DNA from: Deltaproteobacteria bacterium
GTDB lineage: Bacteria; Myxococcota; Kuafuiibacteriia; Kuafuiibacteriales; Kuafuiibacteriaceae
Direction: 5' to 3'
Assembly (NCBI GenBank): GCA_040218735.1
Contig: JAVJQW010000018.1
Location: 224,001 to 288,000 of the forward strand
DNA length: 64,000 nt
The translations under genes and the position numbers were made by a program. The notes beneath the pieces were generated by a model. It did no database searches. It was not told the origin of the DNA and saw only the letters and a list, made by a program, of their open reading frames with translations. Shown in pieces: positions 6,206 through 23,203 of this stretch (positions are counted from its first letter, which is position 1; each line of letters starts with the position of its first letter).

Positions 6206-9097
6206 TCAGACCGCGGGGATCAACACGCCGAGGAGCACGTCGCTCGCCTTGCGTACGTCGGGGACCTCGTCCTTGGCGATGCGTTCGGCGAGGGCACGAA
6301 GCTCCTCGGTGGACTGGTCGAACTCGGGGCTGTCGGCGGCGTCGCCCAGGAGGTTCGCGAGCGTGAAACACGCCGTCTCGCGGACGACCGGGTCGCGGGA
6401 CTCGAGGTGGCGCGCGACGCCGTTGCGCACCGCGAGCATCCGCCGTTCGCCGACGAGGTGCAGCGTGCACGTGACGACCCAGGGGTGCGTGTCCTTCAGC
6501 AGGCGCGCGAGCCACGTGTTGGCGTCGGCGCGCTCGAGGTCGAACAACTCGTGGCCGGCCTTGAGCTTCTCTTCGAAGGTGTGGTCCTCGAGGAGCGGGA
6601 GGAGCACGCGTTTCTCTTCCTTCGACAGGAGGTTGTCCACGACCTCGATCGCGTTCGCGCGCACCACTTTGTTCTCGGCGTCGAGGTTCGTGTAGACGAG
6701 CTGGATCGTGCGCGACGGATAGCGAATCTCGAGGAGCCGGAACGCGAGCCCGAGTTTGCTCTGGTGGCGCACGAACAGCGCCTCGACCAGGAGGTGGTCC
6801 TCGGGGAGGCCGAGGTCGGCGATGACCGCGAGGGCCTGGTAGGCGTCGCGGATCTCCGTCTCGATCGCCTTGTCGAGGACCTCGTCCAACACCCGGACGC
6901 CCGGCGACCGTTCGCGGATCCGCGCCGAGGCGCGCGCGATGTTGGCGCGCAGCTCGGCGTCGTCGGTGTCGAGGTTCTCGAGGAGCTTCGTCACCGCGTC
7001 CTGCTCGCCGATGCGCCCGAGGATCTTCGGGACGAGGCGCCGGATGAGGATGTCTTCCCGTTTGTTGCGGAGCACCTTGAACAGCGTCTTCTCGATCTCG
7101 CGGCCGTAGCCGATCAGCGCGCGCACCGCCGCGGTGTTGCAGGTGCGGTCGGAGAGTTTGTAGACGAGCGACGGCACCAGCTCACGGCTCTGCATCTCCC
7201 CCGCGGCCTCCACCGCCGCGAGGCGAACGACCGGGTCCTCGTCCTGTAGCAGCTCGAGCACCGGCTGGAAGAAGTTGCGGACCTTGATCGCCCCGAGCAC
7301 CCGCGCGCCCTGCAAGCGCTCTTGCGGGTCGTCGCTGGAGAGGAAGTGTTTGAGGGTCTCGGCTGCGGTGAGGATGCCGTCGAGGCCGCCGTGGAGGATC
7401 AGCGCCGCGACGGCCGCCGCGCGGACCTCGCCGCTCGGGTCGTTGAGGAACGGGCTCGCGGCGCGGATCGCACGCTCGCGACCGATCGCGCAGAACGCGC
7501 CGATCGCCGCCGCGCGGACCTTGGGGTGCTCGTCGGCGAGCAGCGGGTGAATCGCGCTCGCGCCCTCCACCCGGCCGGACGTACCGATCTCCTTGACCGC
7601 CGCGATGCGAACCTCCTGCGAGGGGTGCTCGAGCAGCTCGGCGAGCTCCTCGTAGAAGTCGGCTTCGAGTGACGGCAGCAGCTCCAGCGCGTGCAGGACG
7701 TGTTGCTCGTCGTCGGAGAGGAGGCGTGTCTTCAGCGTCTTGAGCGTGGCGTCGTCGACGACGGGCGACCAGGTGTCGCCGAGGTCGAGGCGCCGCGCGT
7801 GCAGCGTCTCGATCAACGACTTCACGTACTCGCCGCGGATGCCGACGACGAGGAAGATCCAACCGCCCAGCAGCGCGATGTCCGCGAAGGCGAGGTTTTC
7901 GACGAGCTGCTCGGACGTGAACGCGCGCCCCAGCAGATAGATCACCAGACCGGAGACGCCGATGCTCGCCGGCTTCAGGATGCCGTCGATGAACGCCTTC
8001 GCGCGCCCGCGGTTGTGCGAGGGCACCGGGACGTAGAGGAGCTGCATCGTGGCGTCGTTCACCGTGTAGCGGAAGATGTTCTCCGCGCCCTTCGCGACGG
8101 TGACCGCGACGAGCATCGAGATCATCGGCACGAACAACATCGCGCCCGCGCCCGAGAGGATCGCGACGGGCAGGACCAGCAGCGAGATGACGATGCCCGA
8201 GCGCTCGAGCAGCCGTCCGGTCACGAAGAACTGCATCAGACTCGAGATGATCCCGGTGAAGCCGTAGAAGTACCCGAAGAACGACGCGAGCTCACCCTCG
8301 CCGGACAGCTGCATCTTCGCGACGACCTTGAACTGGTAGTCGACGACCGTGACCGTGAGGAACGTCAGCACGACGATGCCGGCGATCAGCTTGAGGTGTT
8401 TGCTGTGGAGGACGGTGCCGGACTCGCGCTGAATCCGGAGCGAGCGCTTGCGCGGCTTGCGCACCGCCGCCTCGAGGTCGCGCACGGAGCGCTTGCCGAT
8501 CGCACGCACGGCGAGGGTGCACAGGAAGAAGATCGACCCGGTGATCAGGAGGAGGTTCGAGCTCCCGATCACCGGCGCGATCGCGCCGATGCCGAACCCG
8601 CAGATGATGTTCGACAGGACGCCGCCCGCGCCGATGAAGCCGAACAGGCGCTTGCCCTGGCGTCCGCTGAAGATGTCGCTCGCGAACGTCCAGAACTGGA
8701 TGATGGAGATCGCGCCGAGGATCTCCACGAGCACGTAGAGGACCGCGTACATCCACGTGCCCCCGGAGCTCAGCGTGATGATGCTCCAGAAGCCGAACGA
8801 CGTCGCCGAGAAGATCATCAGCGTCGAGACGATCAACTTGTCGCGCCGGTACTTGTCGGCGACCCGGCTGTACACGTACGCCGCCATCGCCACCGCGACG
8901 GCCGTCGCCATGTACATCAGCGGCAGCTTGCCGAGGTCCACGCGGTGCAGGAACAGCGTGTCGCGAACGGTGCGCCCGATGATGAACGTCGACACGACGC
9001 CCATCAGGTAGAAGAACATCAAGAAGACTTGGCGCGCCTCGCCGGGCCGGATCCGGAAGGCCGAGTCGAGCAGCCCATCAACGTTGACGCGCGCCAT
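6206..9097 (-). CDS. Npt/TLC-family nucleotide translocase-like transporter fused to HEAT repeats
   Basis: About 12 TM N-terminal half with RDTLFL, QFWTFASDIFSGRQGKRLFG, DYQFK, RGRAKAFID; C-terminal HEAT repeats (VRAAAI, VRLAAV, VVRETA). Confidence 0.85.
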   Translation of the reverse strand: MARVNVDGLLDSAFRIRPGEARQVFLMFFYLMGVVSTFIIGRTVRDTLFLHRVDLGKLPLMYMATAVAVAMAAYVYSRVADKYRRDKLIVSTLMIFSATSFGFWSIITLSSGGTWMYAVLYVLVEILGAISIIQFWTFASDIFSGRQGKRLFGFIGAGGVLSNIICGFGIGAIAPVIGSSNLLLITGSIFFLCTLAVRAIGKRSVRDLEAAVRKPRKRSLRIQRESGTVLHSKHLKLIAGIVVLTFLTVTVVDYQFKVVAKMQLSGEGELASFFGYFYGFTGIISSLMQFFVTGRLLERSGIVISLLVLPVAILSGAGAMLFVPMISMLVAVTVAKGAENIFRYTVNDATMQLLYVPVPSHNRGRAKAFIDGILKPASIGVSGLVIYLLGRAFTSEQLVENLAFADIALLGGWIFLVVGIRGEYVKSLIETLHARRLDLGDTWSPVVDDATLKTLKTRLLSDDEQHVLHALELLPSLEADFYEELAELLEHPSQEVRIAAVKEIGTSGRVEGASAIHPLLADEHPKVRAAAIGAFCAIGRERAIRAASPFLNDPSGEVRAAAVAALILHGGLDGILTAAETLKHFLSSDDPQERLQGARVLGAIKVRNFFQPVLELLQDEDPVVRLAAVEAAGEMQSRELVPSLVYKLSDRTCNTAAVRALIGYGREIEKTLFKVLRNKREDILIRRLVPKILGRIGEQDAVTKLLENLDTDDAELRANIARASARIRERSPGVRVLDEVLDKAIETEIRDAYQALAVIADLGLPEDHLLVEALFVRHQSKLGLAFRLLEIRYPSRTIQLVYTNLDAENKVVRANAIEVVDNLLSKEEKRVLLPLLEDHTFEEKLKAGHELFDLERADANTWLARLLKDTHPWVVTCTLHLVGERRMLAVRNGVARHLESRDPVVRETACFTLANLLGDAADSPEFDQSTEELRALAERIAKDEVPDVRKASDVLLGVLIPAV

Positions 9098-9135
9098 CGG
9101 GGGACGGGGAGCTTACCCCGGGGTGGGGCCGGGGG

Positions 9136-9164
9136 CGAGCGCCGCGATGTGACCGCGGCGCTCG
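9136..9164. other. Perfect 11-bp stem-loop just after the mdh stop (RNA-stabilising hairpin or U-less terminator)
   Basis: CGAGCGCCGCG-ATGTGAC-CGCGGCGCTCG; no U-tract follows on the minus strand. Confidence 0.5.
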
Positions 9165-9172
9165 GGGGGAAG

Positions 9173-10186
<1,014 letters not shown>

Positions 10187-11512
10187 CTACCAGGAAGCCT
10201 GCGAAGCCGTGCGCTTCATCGCCTGGCGGACGCGCGACTTCCGGACCTCTTCGAAGTTCTCGACGATCGCTTCGCAGAACTGCGCGGTCGTGAGCGTCGC
10301 AACGTCGTCCTGGATGAAGCTCGCGAGGTCCGGCGTGACCTTCTTGTCGGAGATCGTCTTGATGAGCGCGTTGGTCACCAGCTCCGCCGAGTCCTTCCAC
10401 CCGAGGTGGTCGAACAGCATCACACCGCAGAGGAGCACCGACGTGGGGTTCTCTTCCTCGGCCTCGCCAATCTTGGGGAGGAGGTGGTGCGTCGACTCGA
10501 AGATCGCCGCCTTCGCGCCGACGTACGCCTGCGGTGCGAGCCCGATCTGACCGACCATCGCGAGGCCCATCTGCTCGATGTAGTGCCCGTTGAGGTTGGT
10601 GGTCGCGACGATGTCGAACTGGTCCGGCTTCAGCAGCATCTGCTGGAAGAACTTGTCCGTCGAACGGTCCCGGATCACGACGCGGCCGCGCGGCGGCTCG
10701 CCGTCGTGCTCCTCCATCACTTCCTTCTCGGTGACGGTGTACTCGCCGAACTCCTTGCGCGCGATCTCGTAGCCCCAGTCGCGGAAGAAACCTTCCGTGT
10801 GGCGCATGATCGAGCCCTTGTGCACGAACGTGACGGAGCGCTTCTTGTGTTTGATTGCGTACTCGATCGCGAGGCGGATGAGCCGCTTCGTCGCCGTCGC
10901 GCTGATCGGCTTGATGCCGATGCTCGAGTCCGGCCGGACCTTCTTGTCGATCTTCTTGCCGAGGTCGTCGTTCAGGATGCCGATGAGCTGCTTGGCCTCC
11001 GGCGACCCCTTCTTCCACTCCATCTCCGCGAAGACGTCCTCGGTGTGCTCGCGGAAGACGAGGATGTCGAGGCCGTGCGGATCCTCGAGGGGCGTCGGCG
11101 CACCGTCGAGGTGATGGATCGGCATGAGGTGCGCGAACAGGTCGAGACGATCGAAGAACGCTTCGTCGAGCGAAGCGCCACCGACGGGCGTCGTCAGCGG
11201 ACCCTTGATGCAGACCTTGTACTCCTGCACGGCGCGCACGGTGTCTTCGGGCAGCCGCTGGGCGGGGCCGTACACTTCGACCGCGCGCTCACCCGCGAAG
11301 ACCTCCAGCCACTCGAGGCGCTTCGCGTTTGCGTAGCAGCGCTCCACGGCGAGGTCGAACACCTCTTGGACGGGCCCCCAGATCTCCGTGCTGATCCCCT
11401 CCCCCTGAATGAACGGAACGATCGGGTCGTCGGGGACCTGAAGCTGACCATTCTTCGCGACCGTGATCTTCGAGCCGCGCTTGGGGGGTGTGATCTTGAG
11501 ATACTTGCCCAT
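10187..11512 (-). CDS. icd: E. coli-type NADP isocitrate dehydrogenase homolog with degenerate active site
   Basis: Full-length colinear with IDH (IKGPLTTPVGG, GIKPIS, VHKGSIM, WGYEIA, NLNG) but key residues are substituted (see findings). Confidence 0.85.
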   Translation of the reverse strand: MGKYLKITPPKRGSKITVAKNGQLQVPDDPIVPFIQGEGISTEIWGPVQEVFDLAVERCYANAKRLEWLEVFAGERAVEVYGPAQRLPEDTVRAVQEYKVCIKGPLTTPVGGASLDEAFFDRLDLFAHLMPIHHLDGAPTPLEDPHGLDILVFREHTEDVFAEMEWKKGSPEAKQLIGILNDDLGKKIDKKVRPDSSIGIKPISATATKRLIRLAIEYAIKHKKRSVTFVHKGSIMRHTEGFFRDWGYEIARKEFGEYTVTEKEVMEEHDGEPPRGRVVIRDRSTDKFFQQMLLKPDQFDIVATTNLNGHYIEQMGLAMVGQIGLAPQAYVGAKAAIFESTHHLLPKIGEAEEENPTSVLLCGVMLFDHLGWKDSAELVTNALIKTISDKKVTPDLASFIQDDVATLTTAQFCEAIVENFEEVRKSRVRQAMKRTASQASW

Positions 11513-11756
11513 CGGGCGTTGCGATCTACCAAGCCCACCAGAATCTGCAACCCAAAAGACGGCGCGATCGCGGCTGTATTTTTGTCTGGAATGTGATACG
11601 GCCTCGGCCTTTTTCCCGGCGCGGATCTCGTTCGCCCCGTCCGCACAACGTTTGGTGCGATCCGATCAGTATCCTGCGGTCTACGATCCACACCCGGAGG
11701 ACGGGCGTTTTCCCGATGGGGCAGGCGTCCGATCGCCGCAAGGCCCGAGTTGGACC

Positions 11757-12920
11757 TCAGAACAGGTGGTTCATGTGGGGCCCGCGCGGCACGAACAGCT
11801 GCTCCGCGCGGGTGATCGCGGCGTCGCTCCCCGACAGTCCTCCCATCGCGCGGAGCGTCGTCGCGGAGCGGTAACCACAGAACAACGTCGCGAACGTTCG
11901 CGCGTCCGTTCGCACCACGTGCTCGCCGCGGTAACGCGACACCGAAGCACGTCCGTCCTCCACGTGCAGCGTGTACACGCCGGCGTTGCCGCCCACGTGT
12001 TCGTCCTCCACTTCGAACGTCAGCGCACCGCGCACACCCTCCGGATAGCCGCGCGCCTCGAGCGCCTTCGCGACGTGCGTGAGGCGGAGCATCCACGTCA
12101 TGTCGAGCTTCACCTCGTAGTGGTGCTCCGGCCACAGACCGAGGAACGGATCACTCGGCGGCGCCGCCCAGGACAGCTGCTTCACGAAGCTGCGGTGCGT
12201 GAAGAAGAAGTCGAGCAGGCGTCGGTGCGCGTCGGGTGTCGTCGCGACGAGGTCCGTGAGCTCGAAGTCGTGCAGCACACCCGACGCGGTCTTCTTGAAG
12301 ACGGTGTAGCCGACGAGCGCGCCGTCCTCTTCCACGACGAAGCGCTCCGTCCGTTCGAAGCGCGGCGAGAAGATCCGCGACCACACGTAGGGCCCGCGCC
12401 TCAGGTTGCCGTCGTCGCGACGCACCCGCTCCTCGAGCGCCTTCATCGCCGGCACGTCCGCGTCCGTCGCTTCGCGCAAGCTCGCCTTCGATTCGAATCG
12501 CCGTAGACCGTCGGTCTTCGCGCGCACCGCGAACAGGTCGCCGGCGAGGCCGTAACCGACGCGCCGGTACAGGCCGACGGTCGCGGGGTACAGCGTCGAG
12601 ACCGGGACGCCCTCCTCGTGAAGCTCGCGGCACAGGCCGACCATCAGCTGCTTCGCGAGGCCTCGCCCGCGGTGCGCCGGCGCGACGCCCACCCCCGCGA
12701 CGCCGCAGTTGTCGAGCGCGCGCCCGCCGAACCAGATGCCCTGCGGGATGCGGAGCAGGCACGCCTCGACGTCGCTCCCGGTGGCGATGACGCGCAACGT
12801 CTCGCGCCCGGCGCGCTCCAGCCAGCCCTCCGCCATCTCGACGTCGACGTTGAACGTGTACGCCATGACCTCGAGGAGGCGTTCGATGTGGCGGTCTTCG
12901 AGGGGCTGGTAGGTCGACAC
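11757..12920 (-). CDS. Eis-like GNAT acetyltransferase with C-terminal SCP2-like domain
   Basis: VAGVGVAPAHRGRGLA, STLYPA...LYRRVGY; start placed at GTG 12920. Confidence 0.88.
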   Translation of the reverse strand: MSTYQPLEDRHIERLLEVMAYTFNVDVEMAEGWLERAGRETLRVIATGSDVEACLLRIPQGIWFGGRALDNCGVAGVGVAPAHRGRGLAKQLMVGLCRELHEEGVPVSTLYPATVGLYRRVGYGLAGDLFAVRAKTDGLRRFESKASLREATDADVPAMKALEERVRRDDGNLRRGPYVWSRIFSPRFERTERFVVEEDGALVGYTVFKKTASGVLHDFELTDLVATTPDAHRRLLDFFFTHRSFVKQLSWAAPPSDPFLGLWPEHHYEVKLDMTWMLRLTHVAKALEARGYPEGVRGALTFEVEDEHVGGNAGVYTLHVEDGRASVSRYRGEHVVRTDARTFATLFCGYRSATTLRAMGGLSGSDAAITRAEQLFVPRGPHMNHLF

Positions 12921-12999
12921 GGCGGCGCAGTAGGCAACGGGCCCACCGCGTTGGCAATGCCGTGTTCTGACTTCGCGGTCGCGAGACCACACAAACCTC

Positions 13000-13043
13000 G
13001 ATCTTTTTTGCGCGCGGTCGGCGCGGCGCGAAAGGGGAGTCGT
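13000..13043 (+). promoter_or_regulatory. Putative ECF promoter, copy 1
   Basis: GATC-T6-GCGCGCG-N13-GAAAGGGG-AGT-CGT; matches the copy at 17644-17688 with identical spacing after the T-tract. Confidence 0.6.
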
Positions 13044-13071
13044 GGTGAAAGGAACGAACGCCGGCTGAGCG

Positions 13072-13731
13072 ATGGTTGCTCTGGCCCATCGGTTGCTCGA
13101 CCGCCCGCCTCGACCTACCGTCGATGCCCCGGTGAACGATACGGGGGACGCGGCCACGATGCAGGCCAACGAGGGCCTCGCCGAAGGGCGCCCGGAGGCG
13201 TTCGAGCGGGTGTATCGCGCCGAGCTGCGCGCCGTGATGCTCACGCTCGTGGCCGGGTTCCACTACCGCTCCGCGGGGGCGTCGAAGTACCTGCGCGTCG
13301 ACAGCGCGAGTGACGCCGAGGAGATCTGCCAAGAGGCGTTCGCGCAGTTCTTCGCGCAGTGTCGCCGCGGCCGCTTCGACCCGTCGCGGCCGGTGCGTCC
13401 CTACCTACGGCGCATCACGATGAACATCGCGCTGAGGAAGATGGGGCGCCTGTCGCGCGAGGTGCCGACCGAGCTCGTCGACATCGGACCGGCGCCCGAG
13501 CAGGACACCGTCGAGCAACGCGAGCGGGCCGCGCTCCTCAGCGAGTTCAAGGGCCGGCTCGACGACGAAGAACGTGAAGTCATGTCGCTGTACTTCGAGG
13601 CCTCCGGGGCGACGCAGGCCGAGGTCGGCAAGAAGATCGGACGCTCGCGTGACCACGTGTACCGGGTCGCGATGCGGATCCGACAGCAGGCGAAGGAGTT
13701 CTTCGCCGCAAAGGGGTGGTTCGATGAATGA
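13072..13731 (+). CDS. ECF-type RNA polymerase sigma factor
   Basis: Region 2 DAEEICQEAF...PYLRRITMN; region 4 LDDEEREVMSLYF...TQAEVGKKIGRSRDHV. The true start may be a downstream GTG/ATG. Confidence 0.85.
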   Translation: MVALAHRLLDRPPRPTVDAPVNDTGDAATMQANEGLAEGRPEAFERVYRAELRAVMLTLVAGFHYRSAGASKYLRVDSASDAEEICQEAFAQFFAQCRRGRFDPSRPVRPYLRRITMNIALRKMGRLSREVPTELVDIGPAPEQDTVEQRERAALLSEFKGRLDDEEREVMSLYFEASGATQAEVGKKIGRSRDHVYRVAMRIRQQAKEFFAAKGWFDE

Positions 13732-20478: not shown

Positions 20479-21642
20479 GTGGGTCGCCGCCTCCTCGCCG
20501 TCGCCGTGCTCCTCAGCACGGGCTGTGTCGCGCACTACGAAGACGCGCTCGGTTACCGCGCGCGGCAGGCTACGTTGCGGCGCGACGTCCCGGCGTTCTC
20601 CGAGCTGATGGCGGAGGCCGCCGACACCCTCCCGAGCCACCCCTACGACAACCCGAAGAAGACGGTGCTCACGCACTTCCTCGACCTCGCGGGCGAGCCG
20701 GGGTTCTTCGAGATGATCGACGCGTGGCGAAAGCGTGAGTGGGTCTCCGAGTACATGACCTGCGCGATCCACCGCGCGCGTTACCGCGGGATGCGCGACA
20801 AGGACTTCGAGGAAGCCACGCGCGCGGCGAACGTCTGCATCGATCAGGCGCGCTCGGCGGCGTACGCGGGCGACCGGTCCTGGGAGCTCGAGGTGTGTCT
20901 GGAGGAGGCGCCGTTCCTCACCGAGACGAGCACCGCCACGCTGCGCCCGTACCTGCTCCTCGCGGCCGACGCGACGGAGCCGCGCACCTTCCGCAAGGGC
21001 GTCGTGTCCGGGATGACGCACCTGTACGTCATGGACGCGTACACCCGGCGCGCGAACGACCCGTCGCTCGACGCCGCGGGTGCGCTCGCGCAGACGGAGC
21101 GCGCAGTGGGGGAGGTCGGCGCGCGGCTCCGGTCGATCCTCGACGTGCTCCGGATCGCGATGGACACCACGCTCCTCGCGGCGGGGTCGGCGTTCGGGGC
21201 CTCGGAGTTGGAGCGTGTGAGCCTGTCGCTCGGGGAGAGCTTCATCGGCACCTTCGCCGACAGCGACCTCGCCGAGGCGCAGGATCTCGCGTGGGCGTGG
21301 GTGCGCTCGATGAAGGTGCGCGAGCGGGACCGCCGGTTGTCGCGGTTGTCGCTGTGGGATCGGCGGCGCGAGCCGAAGTCCGACGCCTACTGGTACCTGT
21401 GCAGCAAACAGCGCGTGGACGAGGTCTTCTCCGTCGCGGACGTGCGCGCGATCAGCGTCCGCGCGACGCAGCGGGTCGAAGATCCGCAGGCCTTCGCGCC
21501 CCTGTGTGTGGGGTACCCGAGCCTGGCGGGACCCTACCCCCTGGAGGCGACCGCGCGGGGGACGTTGACGGCTTCCGTGGCGCGGACTTCGAGCGTGGCG
21601 CGCGTGCGGTTGTCGATCGCGGCACGCAAGACACTGAAGTGA
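20479..21642 (+). CDS. Hypothetical lipoprotein
   Basis: GRRLLAVAVLLSTGC lipobox; helical body; start placed at GTG 20479. Confidence 0.65.
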   Translation: MGRRLLAVAVLLSTGCVAHYEDALGYRARQATLRRDVPAFSELMAEAADTLPSHPYDNPKKTVLTHFLDLAGEPGFFEMIDAWRKREWVSEYMTCAIHRARYRGMRDKDFEEATRAANVCIDQARSAAYAGDRSWELEVCLEEAPFLTETSTATLRPYLLLAADATEPRTFRKGVVSGMTHLYVMDAYTRRANDPSLDAAGALAQTERAVGEVGARLRSILDVLRIAMDTTLLAAGSAFGASELERVSLSLGESFIGTFADSDLAEAQDLAWAWVRSMKVRERDRRLSRLSLWDRRREPKSDAYWYLCSKQRVDEVFSVADVRAISVRATQRVEDPQAFAPLCVGYPSLAGPYPLEATARGTLTASVARTSSVARVRLSIAARKTLK

Positions 21643-21664
21643 AAATCCGCTAGACCGCTCGGCG

Positions 21665-23203
21665 ATGACCACCACCGAGTCGGACCTGAGGCAGCACGTC
21701 GAGACCGTCGAGAAGGGCGGCGCCGAGAAGTACCACGAGAAGAACACGGCCGTCGGGAAGCTGTTCTGCCGCGAGCGCATCAAGCGGCTCCTGGATCCGG
21801 ATCAGCCGGACTGGGTCGAGGACGGGCTGCTCGTGAACGTGCTCGCGGGCGGGCTGCCCGCGGACGGTGTCGTGACCGGCGTGGGTCGGGTGCACGGTCG
21901 ACCGGTCGCGATCATGGCGAACGACTCGACGGTGAAGGCCGGCTCGTGGGGCAAGCGCACGGTGGAGAAGATCGTGCGCATCCAGGAGCAGGCGCTGCGC
22001 CACAAGATGCCGTTGATCTACCTCGTCGACTCGGCGGGGGCGCGCATCACGGATCAGGTCGAGATGTTCCCGGGGCGGCGCCACGCGGGGCGCATCTTCC
22101 ACAACCAGTGCAGGCTGTCGGGTTACGTGCCGCAGCTGTGCTTGCTGTTCGGTCCGTCGGCGGCGGGCGGCGCGTACATCCCGGCGTTCTGCGACCAGGT
22201 CTTCATGGTGAAGGGCAACGCGTCGATGTACCTCGGCTCGCCGCGCATGGCGAAGATGGTCATCAACGAGGACGTGACACTCGAGGAGATGGGCGGCGCG
22301 AAGATGCACTGCTCGACGTCCGGCTGCGGAGACCTGCTCGCGAAGGACGAGGACGAGGCGCTCACCGCGGCGCGCGATTATCTGTCGTACATGCCGTCGT
22401 ACTGGGAGGACCACCCGGTGGACCAACCGGCGCGCGCGCCGAAGACGGACCCGTCCGAGATCGCCGGGTTGATTCCGGAGTCCGAGAACAAGCCGTTCGA
22501 CATGTTCACGGTGATCGACGGGATCGTGGACGAGGGTTCCTTCTTCGAGCTCAAGAAGCGCTTCGCGAAGGAGCTGATCACGGGCTTCGCGCGCCTCGAC
22601 GGGCGGGTGATCGGCGTGGTCGCGAATCAGCCGAAGTACAAGGGCGGCGTGTTGTTCGTGGACAGCGCGGACAAGGCGGCGCGCTTCGTGTGGCTGTGCG
22701 ATGCGTTCAACATCCCGCTGCTGTTCCTCGCGGACGTGCCGGGGTTCATGATCGGATCGGCGGTCGAGAAGCAGGGCATCATTCGGCACGGCGCCAAGAT
22801 GATCAACGCGATCTCCGAGGCGACGGTCCCGAAGTTCTGCGTCGTCGTGCGCAAGGCCTACGGGGCGGGGCTGTACGCGATGTGCGGACCGGGCTTCGAG
22901 CCGGACGCGACGCTGGCGTTCCCGTCCGCGAGCATCGCGGTGATGGGGCCGCAGGCGGCGGTCAACGCGGTGTACGCGAACAAGATCGCGGAGCAGCCGG
23001 AGGACGAGCGCGAGGCGTTCGTCGAGCGGCTGCGCGCGGAGTACCGCGAGGACATCGACATCGTGAAGCTCGCGTCCGAGAACGTCATCGAGGGGATCGT
23101 GGAGCCGGCGCAGCTACGCGGTGAGCTGACCCGTCGCCTCGCGTACGCGGACAACAAGGAGCGCGACGTGATCGTGAAGCGCCGCAGCGTGGTCCCGGTG
23201 TGA
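21665..23203 (+). CDS. Acyl-CoA carboxylase carboxyltransferase (beta) subunit
   Basis: ADGVVTGVG, ANDSTVKAGSWG, DSAGAR, AAGGAY, DVPGFMIG, RKAYGAG. Confidence 0.95.
   Translation: MTTTESDLRQHVETVEKGGAEKYHEKNTAVGKLFCRERIKRLLDPDQPDWVEDGLLVNVLAGGLPADGVVTGVGRVHGRPVAIMANDSTVKAGSWGKRTVEKIVRIQEQALRHKMPLIYLVDSAGARITDQVEMFPGRRHAGRIFHNQCRLSGYVPQLCLLFGPSAAGGAYIPAFCDQVFMVKGNASMYLGSPRMAKMVINEDVTLEEMGGAKMHCSTSGCGDLLAKDEDEALTAARDYLSYMPSYWEDHPVDQPARAPKTDPSEIAGLIPESENKPFDMFTVIDGIVDEGSFFELKKRFAKELITGFARLDGRVIGVVANQPKYKGGVLFVDSADKAARFVWLCDAFNIPLLFLADVPGFMIGSAVEKQGIIRHGAKMINAISEATVPKFCVVVRKAYGAGLYAMCGPGFEPDATLAFPSASIAVMGPQAAVNAVYANKIAEQPEDEREAFVERLRAEYREDIDIVKLASENVIEGIVEPAQLRGELTRRLAYADNKERDVIVKRRSVVPV

Follow-up and report, generated by a model that had tools for sequence, protein, structure and literature searches.

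On the minus strand of a 64,000-nt stretch of Myxococcota DNA (hereafter the window; positions 224,001 to 288,000 of contig JAVJQW010000018.1, assembly GCA_040218735.1, family Kuafuiibacteriaceae) lies an open reading frame (ORF) for a 441-amino-acid protein of the isocitrate dehydrogenase (IDH) superfamily in which catalytic positions are substituted. We refer to the gene as pseudo-icd, to its product as pseudo-IDH, and to the protein together with its orthologues as the pseudo-IDH clade. The minus-strand order is pseudo-icd, a 78-nt spacer, the malate dehydrogenase (MDH) gene mdh, a gene for a 963-amino-acid TLC/MFS-HEAT protein, and RNase R. The gene and its parts are the following, with clasp boundaries that we assume from E. 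coli IDH:

10187..11512, minus strand: pseudo-IDH coding sequence, 441 amino acids plus stop, ATG start, no internal stop; predicted E. coli-type IDH fold with a degenerate substrate/metal/NADP pocket
11414..11512, minus strand: N-terminal segment, codons 1-33, almost invariant in the pseudo-IDH clade
10571..11167, minus strand: span with the substituted catalytic positions, from the alignment to E. coli Icd
10874..11020, minus strand: clasp-equivalent region, codons 165-213, with the conserved blocks EWKKGSPEAKQLI and RPDSSIGIKPISATATKR
10211..10258, minus strand: C-terminal extension, codons 419-434, NFEEVRKSRVRQAMKR; clade-specific, conserved and basic, with no counterpart in canonical IDHs

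The ORF is intact and full length, as the initial annotation of this DNA had described it, and its product matched the whole Pfam Iso_dh profile (PF00180, positions 2-348 of 348; 186.9 bits, cut-off 27). This whole-domain score and the predicted IDH fold place it in the isocitrate/isopropylmalate dehydrogenase superfamily. At the equivalog level, pseudo-IDH scored 470.4 bits on TIGR00183, the prokaryotic NADP-IDH equivalog, below the curated cut-off of 567.3, and 436.4 bits on NF005425 (cut-off 490), and it stayed under the cut-off of every NCBIfam IDH model. By score it thus falls outside the NADP-IDHs (EC 1.1.1.42), whereas its paralogue L002 in the same genome lies above both cut-offs (656.5 and 689.2 bits). 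The closest solved structures were E. coli-type homodimeric IDHs (2iv0, 1.9e-119; E. coli 1ai2, 3e-108). An AlphaFold2 model from a 62-row alignment had a mean predicted local distance difference test score (pLDDT) of 90.7 and a long C-terminal helix (409-438), and Foldseek matched it to archaeal IDH 2iv0 with an E-value of 3.2e-50 and template modelling (TM) scores of 0.88/0.94. Judging from this model, the IDH fold is intact. A search of the ESM Atlas with pseudo-IDH returned ordinary IDH clusters only, at 0.96, and no structure of pseudo-IDH itself.

Compared with the E. coli-type homodimeric NADP-IDH (Icd; TIGR00183; PDB 3icd, 2iv0), pseudo-IDH is alike in fold, length class, N-terminal segment and clasp, at 41-43% identity in structure-based alignments and TM scores of 0.80-0.94. 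It differs in its score (470 vs 567 bits), in the absence of N115, R119, R129, Y160, D307, D311 and the NADP 2'-phosphate residues (E. coli numbering), and in a conserved C-terminal extension of ~20 residues that E. coli-type Icd does not have. Two metatranscriptome runs of a single study (X19 and X20) yielded short contigs that matched pseudo-icd at 90-99% likeness. Metatranscriptome libraries can contain DNA, and the contigs are weak evidence of transcription; they are short, so the parts of the gene that they leave uncovered carry no meaning. A DNA contig of another sample (run X2) covered positions 9563-11900 with 11 differences and 0 gaps.

The active site was compared in an alignment of pseudo-IDH with E. 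coli K-12 Icd, the other icd of the same genome, and 29 relatives. Every substitution listed in the initial annotation was found there (N115D, R119F, R129M, Y160F, D307H, D311Q, G340H, A342L, Y345I, V351E, Y391P, and R395S), as were the retained S113, R153, K230, and D283 and the replacement of R292 by K. In the numbering of the window protein, the substituted residues are D116 (E. coli N115), F120 (R119), M130 (R129), F161 (Y160), H310 (D307), and Q314 (D311), and the kept ones are R154 (R153), K232 (K230), and D286 (D283). We take N115, R119, R129, Y160, D307, D311 and the like to be substrate, metal or catalytic residues of the E. coli enzyme, K230' and D283' to be donated in trans to the partner subunit, and R292', K344, Y345, Y391, and R395 to form its NADP 2'-phosphate site. 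The 12 canonical Icds of the alignment carried the E. coli residue at 28/28 checked positions, and among 48 canonical IDHs 25 of 27 tabulated positions were invariant, the exceptions being T104 (47/48) and V351 (V in 26, I in 22). Because the same positions are near-invariant in canonical IDHs, the substitutions in pseudo-IDH are not due to chance. At the NADP 2'-phosphate site, the window protein reads K, K, I, P, and S (in the order given above). Neither of the residue sets for EC 1.1.1.42, the substrate/metal/catalytic set and the NADP 2'-phosphate set, was complete in pseudo-IDH.

Of the 19 other genomes in the family, 18 yielded full-length, stop-free orthologues with 58-78% identity in a whole-genome search. 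Order- and class-level searches gave the same 20 genomes as the family, so that the lineage is a one-family class, and pseudo-IDH occurs in 19/20 genomes of that class. The sole genome without a match is an assembly that is 75% complete and in 1,480 contigs. A collection of 5.8 billion proteins contained ~70 clusters (90% identity) at 55-93% identity to pseudo-IDH, and an identity gap splits these clusters (>=55%) from canonical IDHs (<=51%). There were almost no indels among the orthologues from the 19 genomes and the ~70 protein clusters. The initial annotation had called for a ratio of nonsynonymous to synonymous substitution rates (dN/dS) below 1 among orthologues, and the Nei-Gojobori (NG86) estimates for pseudo-icd in the two closest genome pairs were 0.059 (dS 0.82) and 0.064 (dS 0.98), indicating purifying selection; the claim uses these two pairs only, other pairs being saturated (dS >1.1) or not computable. 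In the first pair, dN/dS of mdh was 0.066. Terminal branches of close pairs were similar in length for pseudo-IDH and for the canonical Icd of the same genomes. Pseudo-IDH thus combines the three marks of a pseudoenzyme, namely homology to an enzyme family, loss of essential residues, and purifying selection, where inactivity is read from the sequence. On these grounds pseudo-icd appears to be a selected pseudoenzyme gene that is not decaying.

Loss of catalytic residues extends across the clade. We scored ten core residues (S113, N115, R119, R129, R153, Y160, K230, D283, D307, and D311), of which all 48 canonical IDHs kept 10/10, the window protein 4/10, and the 68 clade proteins 2-7/10, never 10. 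N115D was found in 68/68 clade proteins, while R129 was kept in 1/68 and D311 in 0/68; these three changes presumably date from the clade stem. Basal clade members keep 6-7 of the ten core residues and derived ones, including the window protein, 2-4. The D307 position is occupied by H (28), D (17), A (12), and S (6), position 311 by S (40), A (12), and Q (5), and positions G340, Y345, R292, and R395 are scattered in residue. At the NADP 2'-phosphate site, R292 was kept in 7/68 proteins, Y345 in 4/68, and Y391 in 6/68.

Conservation lies elsewhere in the protein. Relative to canonical IDHs, a set that covers more phyla than the clade, the mean top-residue frequency at 27 cleft positions was 0.617 in the clade vs 0.982, and that at the remaining 384 positions was 0.769 vs 0.761. 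Of the 157 positions that are >=95% conserved in canonical IDHs, 71 were kept in the clade. The least conserved blocks (clade vs canonical) were 111-120 (0.61 vs 0.89), 281-300 (0.63, 0.57 vs 0.94, 0.86), 311-330 (0.59, 0.64 vs 0.96, 0.92), and 341-350 (0.41 vs 0.97). The most conserved were 1-30, 61-70, 91-100, the clasp at 165-177 and 193-210, 241-250, 361-380, and 419-434. Within the N-terminus, blocks 1-10, 11-20, and 21-30 had frequencies of 0.87, 1.00, and 0.99 in the clade vs 0.47, 0.46, and 0.70 in canonical IDHs. The C-terminal extension is predicted to prolong the last helix (409-438), and conservation of block 421-430 was 0.91 in the clade. By this measure, conservation appears to have shifted from the active-site cleft to the N-terminus, the clasp, and a new basic C-terminal helix. 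In E. coli IDH the clasp belongs to the dimer interface, and since the clasp is conserved, pseudo-IDH is probably still a dimer; the pattern suggests that the dimer architecture was kept.

Five Iso_dh genes are present in the source genome (G000; 11.6 Mb in 70 contigs, 96.5% complete). Among them is the second, intact icd that the initial annotation had suggested looking for: L002, on contig 42, with canonical residues at 28/28 positions. The other Iso_dh genes encode a 334-amino-acid NAD-IDH-like protein and two proteins resembling LeuB, tartrate or homoisocitrate dehydrogenases. The NAD-IDH-like protein (L001; G000:C55:419121-420101) had a best NCBIfam score of 476.5 against a cut-off of 510, which is below every equivalog, and three-piece matches resembling it occurred in most genomes of the class. 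It may be a further active IDH, with unclear cofactor preference.

A dimeric canonical Icd was present in 17/20 genomes of the class. In G004 and G006 it occurred as pieces in different frames (two at G004:C66:278728-280019 and at least five at G006:C14:164505-165869, some with stops), which may be frameshifted genes or assembly errors, and in G014 it was cut by the contig end; G006 had no match to monomeric IDH. G003, G009, and G017 (96, 91, and 98% complete) gave no dimeric Icd, and there the best match of the canonical-Icd query was pseudo-IDH. Exactly these three genomes, which belong to three genera, contained a monomeric IDH (PF03971, 1214-1307 bits), which had no match in the remaining 17. 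Because the distributions of monomeric and dimeric IDH are exactly complementary, they suggest repeated non-orthologous replacement of the active IDH in the class. Pseudo-IDH persists independent of the type of active IDH, and where a canonical Icd is resident, it belongs to a different IDH clade and is ~40% identical to pseudo-IDH. Isocitrate oxidation in the class would be carried out by a canonical dimeric Icd or a monomeric IDH, plus the small NAD-IDH-like enzyme.

The IDH kinase/phosphatase AceK (PF06315, 381 bits) is encoded at G000:C42:380043-380807, on the contig of the canonical Icd and ~68 kb from it. AceK was found in 11/20 genomes of the class, G000 included, all among the 17 with dimeric Icd; eight genomes have pseudo-IDH and no AceK match. 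The residue aligned to E. coli S113 is S in 23/68 clade proteins, D in the orthologues of G006, G007, and G015 and E in that of G018 (L009, L011, L012, and L021), which are phosphomimetic-like, and P in many others, with no clear relation to the presence of AceK. An obligatory role as AceK decoy or substrate was dropped in view of the eight genomes without AceK match and the S113 count.

A maximum-likelihood tree of 50 IDHs, 19 of them pseudo-IDHs, resolved the pseudo-IDHs as monophyletic (SH-aLRT 100), with a long stem branch (0.67 changes per site). They are nested among Icds linked to mdh from other phyla and from other families of Myxococcota, and the canonical Icds of the class itself group in another clade (support 98), which also includes two Icds from other Myxococcota. 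In other families of the phylum, mdh lies directly downstream of a functional icd at 7/10 loci. Pseudo-icd, which has the same operon place upstream of mdh, thus holds the widespread icd-mdh slot used by functional Icd in other Myxococcota. Based on this synteny and the tree, pseudo-IDH would be the positional orthologue of the ancestral Icd.

The neighbouring features downstream of pseudo-icd are as follows:

10109..10186, minus strand: spacer from the pseudo-icd stop to the mdh start, 78 nt, G+C-rich, with a short inverted repeat and no T tract
9173..10108, minus strand: mdh, LDH-like malate dehydrogenase, 311 amino acids; Pfam Ldh_1_N and Ldh_1_C; TIGR01763 409.5 bits against a cut-off of 351.85
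6206..9097, minus strand: next gene downstream of mdh, 963 amino acids; N-terminal half TLC/MFS transporter-like, C-terminal half of HEAT repeats (Pfam)

mdh was directly downstream of pseudo-icd at 16/19 loci; of the three remaining loci, one is truncated at a contig end. A promoter and terminator scan of 8900-12000 gave 0 promoter-like sites and 2 terminator-like sites vs 1.7 expected, neither of them on the minus strand within the spacer, and an Rfam scan of 8900-12100 gave no match at E <= 0.1. We infer that pseudo-icd and mdh are co-transcribed. The inverted repeat of the spacer could be a processing or attenuation hairpin. The TLC/MFS-HEAT gene was near pseudo-icd in 12/19 short flanks and at 9/13 loci of up to 20 kb, and in G009 it follows pseudo-icd directly with no mdh between; the short flanks of 11 canonical icd loci (L026-L036) contained no such gene. 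Upstream, the neighbour in the window encodes an Eis-like GNAT acetyltransferase that also has an SCP2 domain (11757-13244, minus strand). Among the 19 pseudo-icd loci (flanks of ±1.5 kb), it was matched at the window's own locus only. Relatives carry on this side a carboxyltransferase, located in the window at 21638-23200, which points to a local rearrangement in the window.

The adjacency to mdh has a parallel in Bacillus subtilis. There, icd and mdh stand side by side in the same orientation within a citZ-icd-mdh operon, as pseudo-icd and mdh do here. For the products of that operon, a physical interaction between MDH and isocitrate dehydrogenase (ICD) with functional and metabolic consequences is reported (PMC11189929), which we treat as a lead only. 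According to the same paper, ICD forms clusters when MDH binds it, and flux is altered (PMC11189929), which offers a precedent for an IDH-fold protein acting structurally on MDH. ICD of B. subtilis is catalytically active, whereas the MDH interaction of pseudo-IDH is hypothetical. A complex prediction for pseudo-IDH and MDH gave scores of 0.00 and 0.00 vs a mark of 0.32, was run without controls, and counts neither way.

Non-catalytic IDH paralogues are well known for eukaryotic NAD-IDH. Yeast Idh1 (PDB 3blw/3blx) and human IDH3 beta/gamma (6kde, 5gre) are likewise IDH-fold paralogues without catalytic residues that are selected for regulation; each depends on pairing with a catalytic paralogue and has kept the residues that it donates to this partner. 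The initial annotation interpreted pseudo-IDH by the same logic, as a half-site IDH that heterodimerises with a catalytic Icd, donates K230 and D283 to its partner, and exerts allosteric or inhibitory control through its own dead site. The own-site losses stood up in the alignment, and the retention of K230 and D283 (with R292 as K) in the window protein, the intact Icd of the same genome, and the conserved clasp all fit such a model. Conservation of the trans residues did not hold up: orthologues have decayed at K230 and D283, an outcome that the initial annotation itself had named as grounds for rejecting its model. Orthologues in the genomes keep K230 in 7/19 cases and D283 in 4/19 (N/S in G003 at 78% identity, K/N in G006 at 75%), and the 68 clade proteins keep K230 in 46, D283 in 34, and both in 32, which is no better than own-site R119 (58), R153 (67), and Y160 (34). 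The segment aligned to E. coli 278-297, which includes D283 and R292 and which we take to contribute to the dimer interface, is among the poorly conserved blocks listed above. Because basal members keep more core residues than derived ones, the residues seem to have been lost step by step, without selection to keep those acting in trans. In addition, three of the 19 genomes with pseudo-IDH (G003, G009, and G017) have a monomeric IDH in place of dimeric Icd, and a monomeric enzyme cannot supply a homologous dimer partner; where a canonical Icd is resident, it comes from another IDH clade. Pseudo-IDH persists with either kind of active IDH, which makes it unlikely that it depends on a heterodimer with a homologous catalytic subunit, and we regard the half-site model as improbable. 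The eukaryotic NAD-IDH subunits also belong to a different subfamily (63-94 bits vs pseudo-IDH), and the decay of donated residues and the three genomes without a dimeric catalytic partner set pseudo-IDH apart from them. Still less credible, to the point of being nearly negligible, is a non-functional relic, whose ORF would have escaped stops by chance at a genomic G+C of 65-70% or would be kept only for signals in mdh expression. The loss of catalytic residues, the long chance ORFs that high G+C produces in all frames, and the position immediately upstream of mdh are as such a relic would have them. The selection data contradict it, with dN/dS of 0.06 at dS of 0.8-1.0, the level of amino-acid identity and near absence of indels described above, and a clade-specific extension conserved at the protein level, and the gene persists in G009 and G016 without an adjacent mdh.

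The reading we favour, and consider probable, is that pseudo-IDH is a non-catalytic, probably dimeric, partner-binding or regulatory/scaffold protein linked to mdh and the tricarboxylic acid (TCA) cycle. An mdh-linked E. coli-type NADP-IDH would have given rise to a catalytically dead descendant, retained by strong purifying selection across this class of uncultured Myxococcota, while other IDH genes handled isocitrate oxidation. The old substrate/metal/NADP cleft would then drift, with selection acting on the N-terminal 33 residues, the clasp, and the new basic C-terminal helix. The resulting dimeric IDH-fold protein may bind a partner or act as a regulator or scaffold, and co-expression with malate dehydrogenase would tie it to MDH or to TCA-cycle organisation. 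Its mode of action is likely non-catalytic because selection acts outside the cleft, and the operon position makes a connection to MDH or the TCA cycle probable. We infer inactivity, dimer retention, partner binding, and the MDH link. Several points weigh against this interpretation. Inactivity and binding are read from sequence, and the named relatives are all metagenome-assembled Myxococcota or "Deltaproteobacteria"; the block-wise contrasts with canonical IDHs are relative only, and the conserved blocks were defined along the linear sequence, not as one three-dimensional surface. In G009 and G016, pseudo-icd has no adjacent mdh. Basal members together retain Y160, K230, N232, D283, and D307 and may have residual or altered catalysis. 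Some pocket residues remain highly conserved among the 68 clade proteins (K100 in 68, D115 in 68, R153 in 67, D392 in 67, N352 in 65, R119 in 58, and Q129 in 52), so that a conserved ligand site with altered specificity is possible. The last two observations also favour a serious rival, in which the cleft was remodelled on the stem (N115D, R129Q, D311S/A) for another small molecule, as a sensor or for new chemistry, making pseudo-IDH a neofunctionalised ligand-binding protein or enzyme; the long stem of 0.67 would be in keeping with a phase of rapid adaptive change. At other cleft positions, residues are freely exchanged among orthologues of 58-78% identity despite dN/dS of ~0.06, and the window protein does not follow the clade consensus at two conserved cleft residues (R119F and Q129M). 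R129 and D311 are, to our knowledge, invariant across all active beta-decarboxylating dehydrogenases. Weighing both sides, we think neofunctionalisation rather unlikely.

Within the non-catalytic reading, a more specific scenario is possible and is offered tentatively: the ancestral operon Icd may have been converted to a non-catalytic organiser of the TCA cycle after other IDHs took over catalysis, with an IDH-fold dimer that binds through its N-terminus, clasp, and basic helix to MDH or to the transporter-HEAT protein and controls malate/oxaloacetate flux or localisation. Among the papers listed by full-text searches of open-access literature and bioRxiv, none described a catalytically dead E. 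coli-type IDH that is conserved in bacteria. Some database entries name pseudo-IDH proteins "NADP-dependent isocitrate dehydrogenase", a label that would lead to IDH being overcounted in metabolic reconstructions. The class presents a natural experiment in which the active IDH was replaced by non-orthologous IDHs (dimeric in 17 genomes, monomeric in 3) and the old operon gene was kept, under selection as strong as that on mdh, with a drifting active site alongside new conserved surfaces. Pseudo-IDH is a tractable target for studying moonlighting or structural roles of IDH apart from catalysis, with links to the reported ICD-MDH assemblies. If it is indeed a TCA-cycle organiser, it would be a bacterial pseudo-IDH that functions independently of any catalytic IDH partner.

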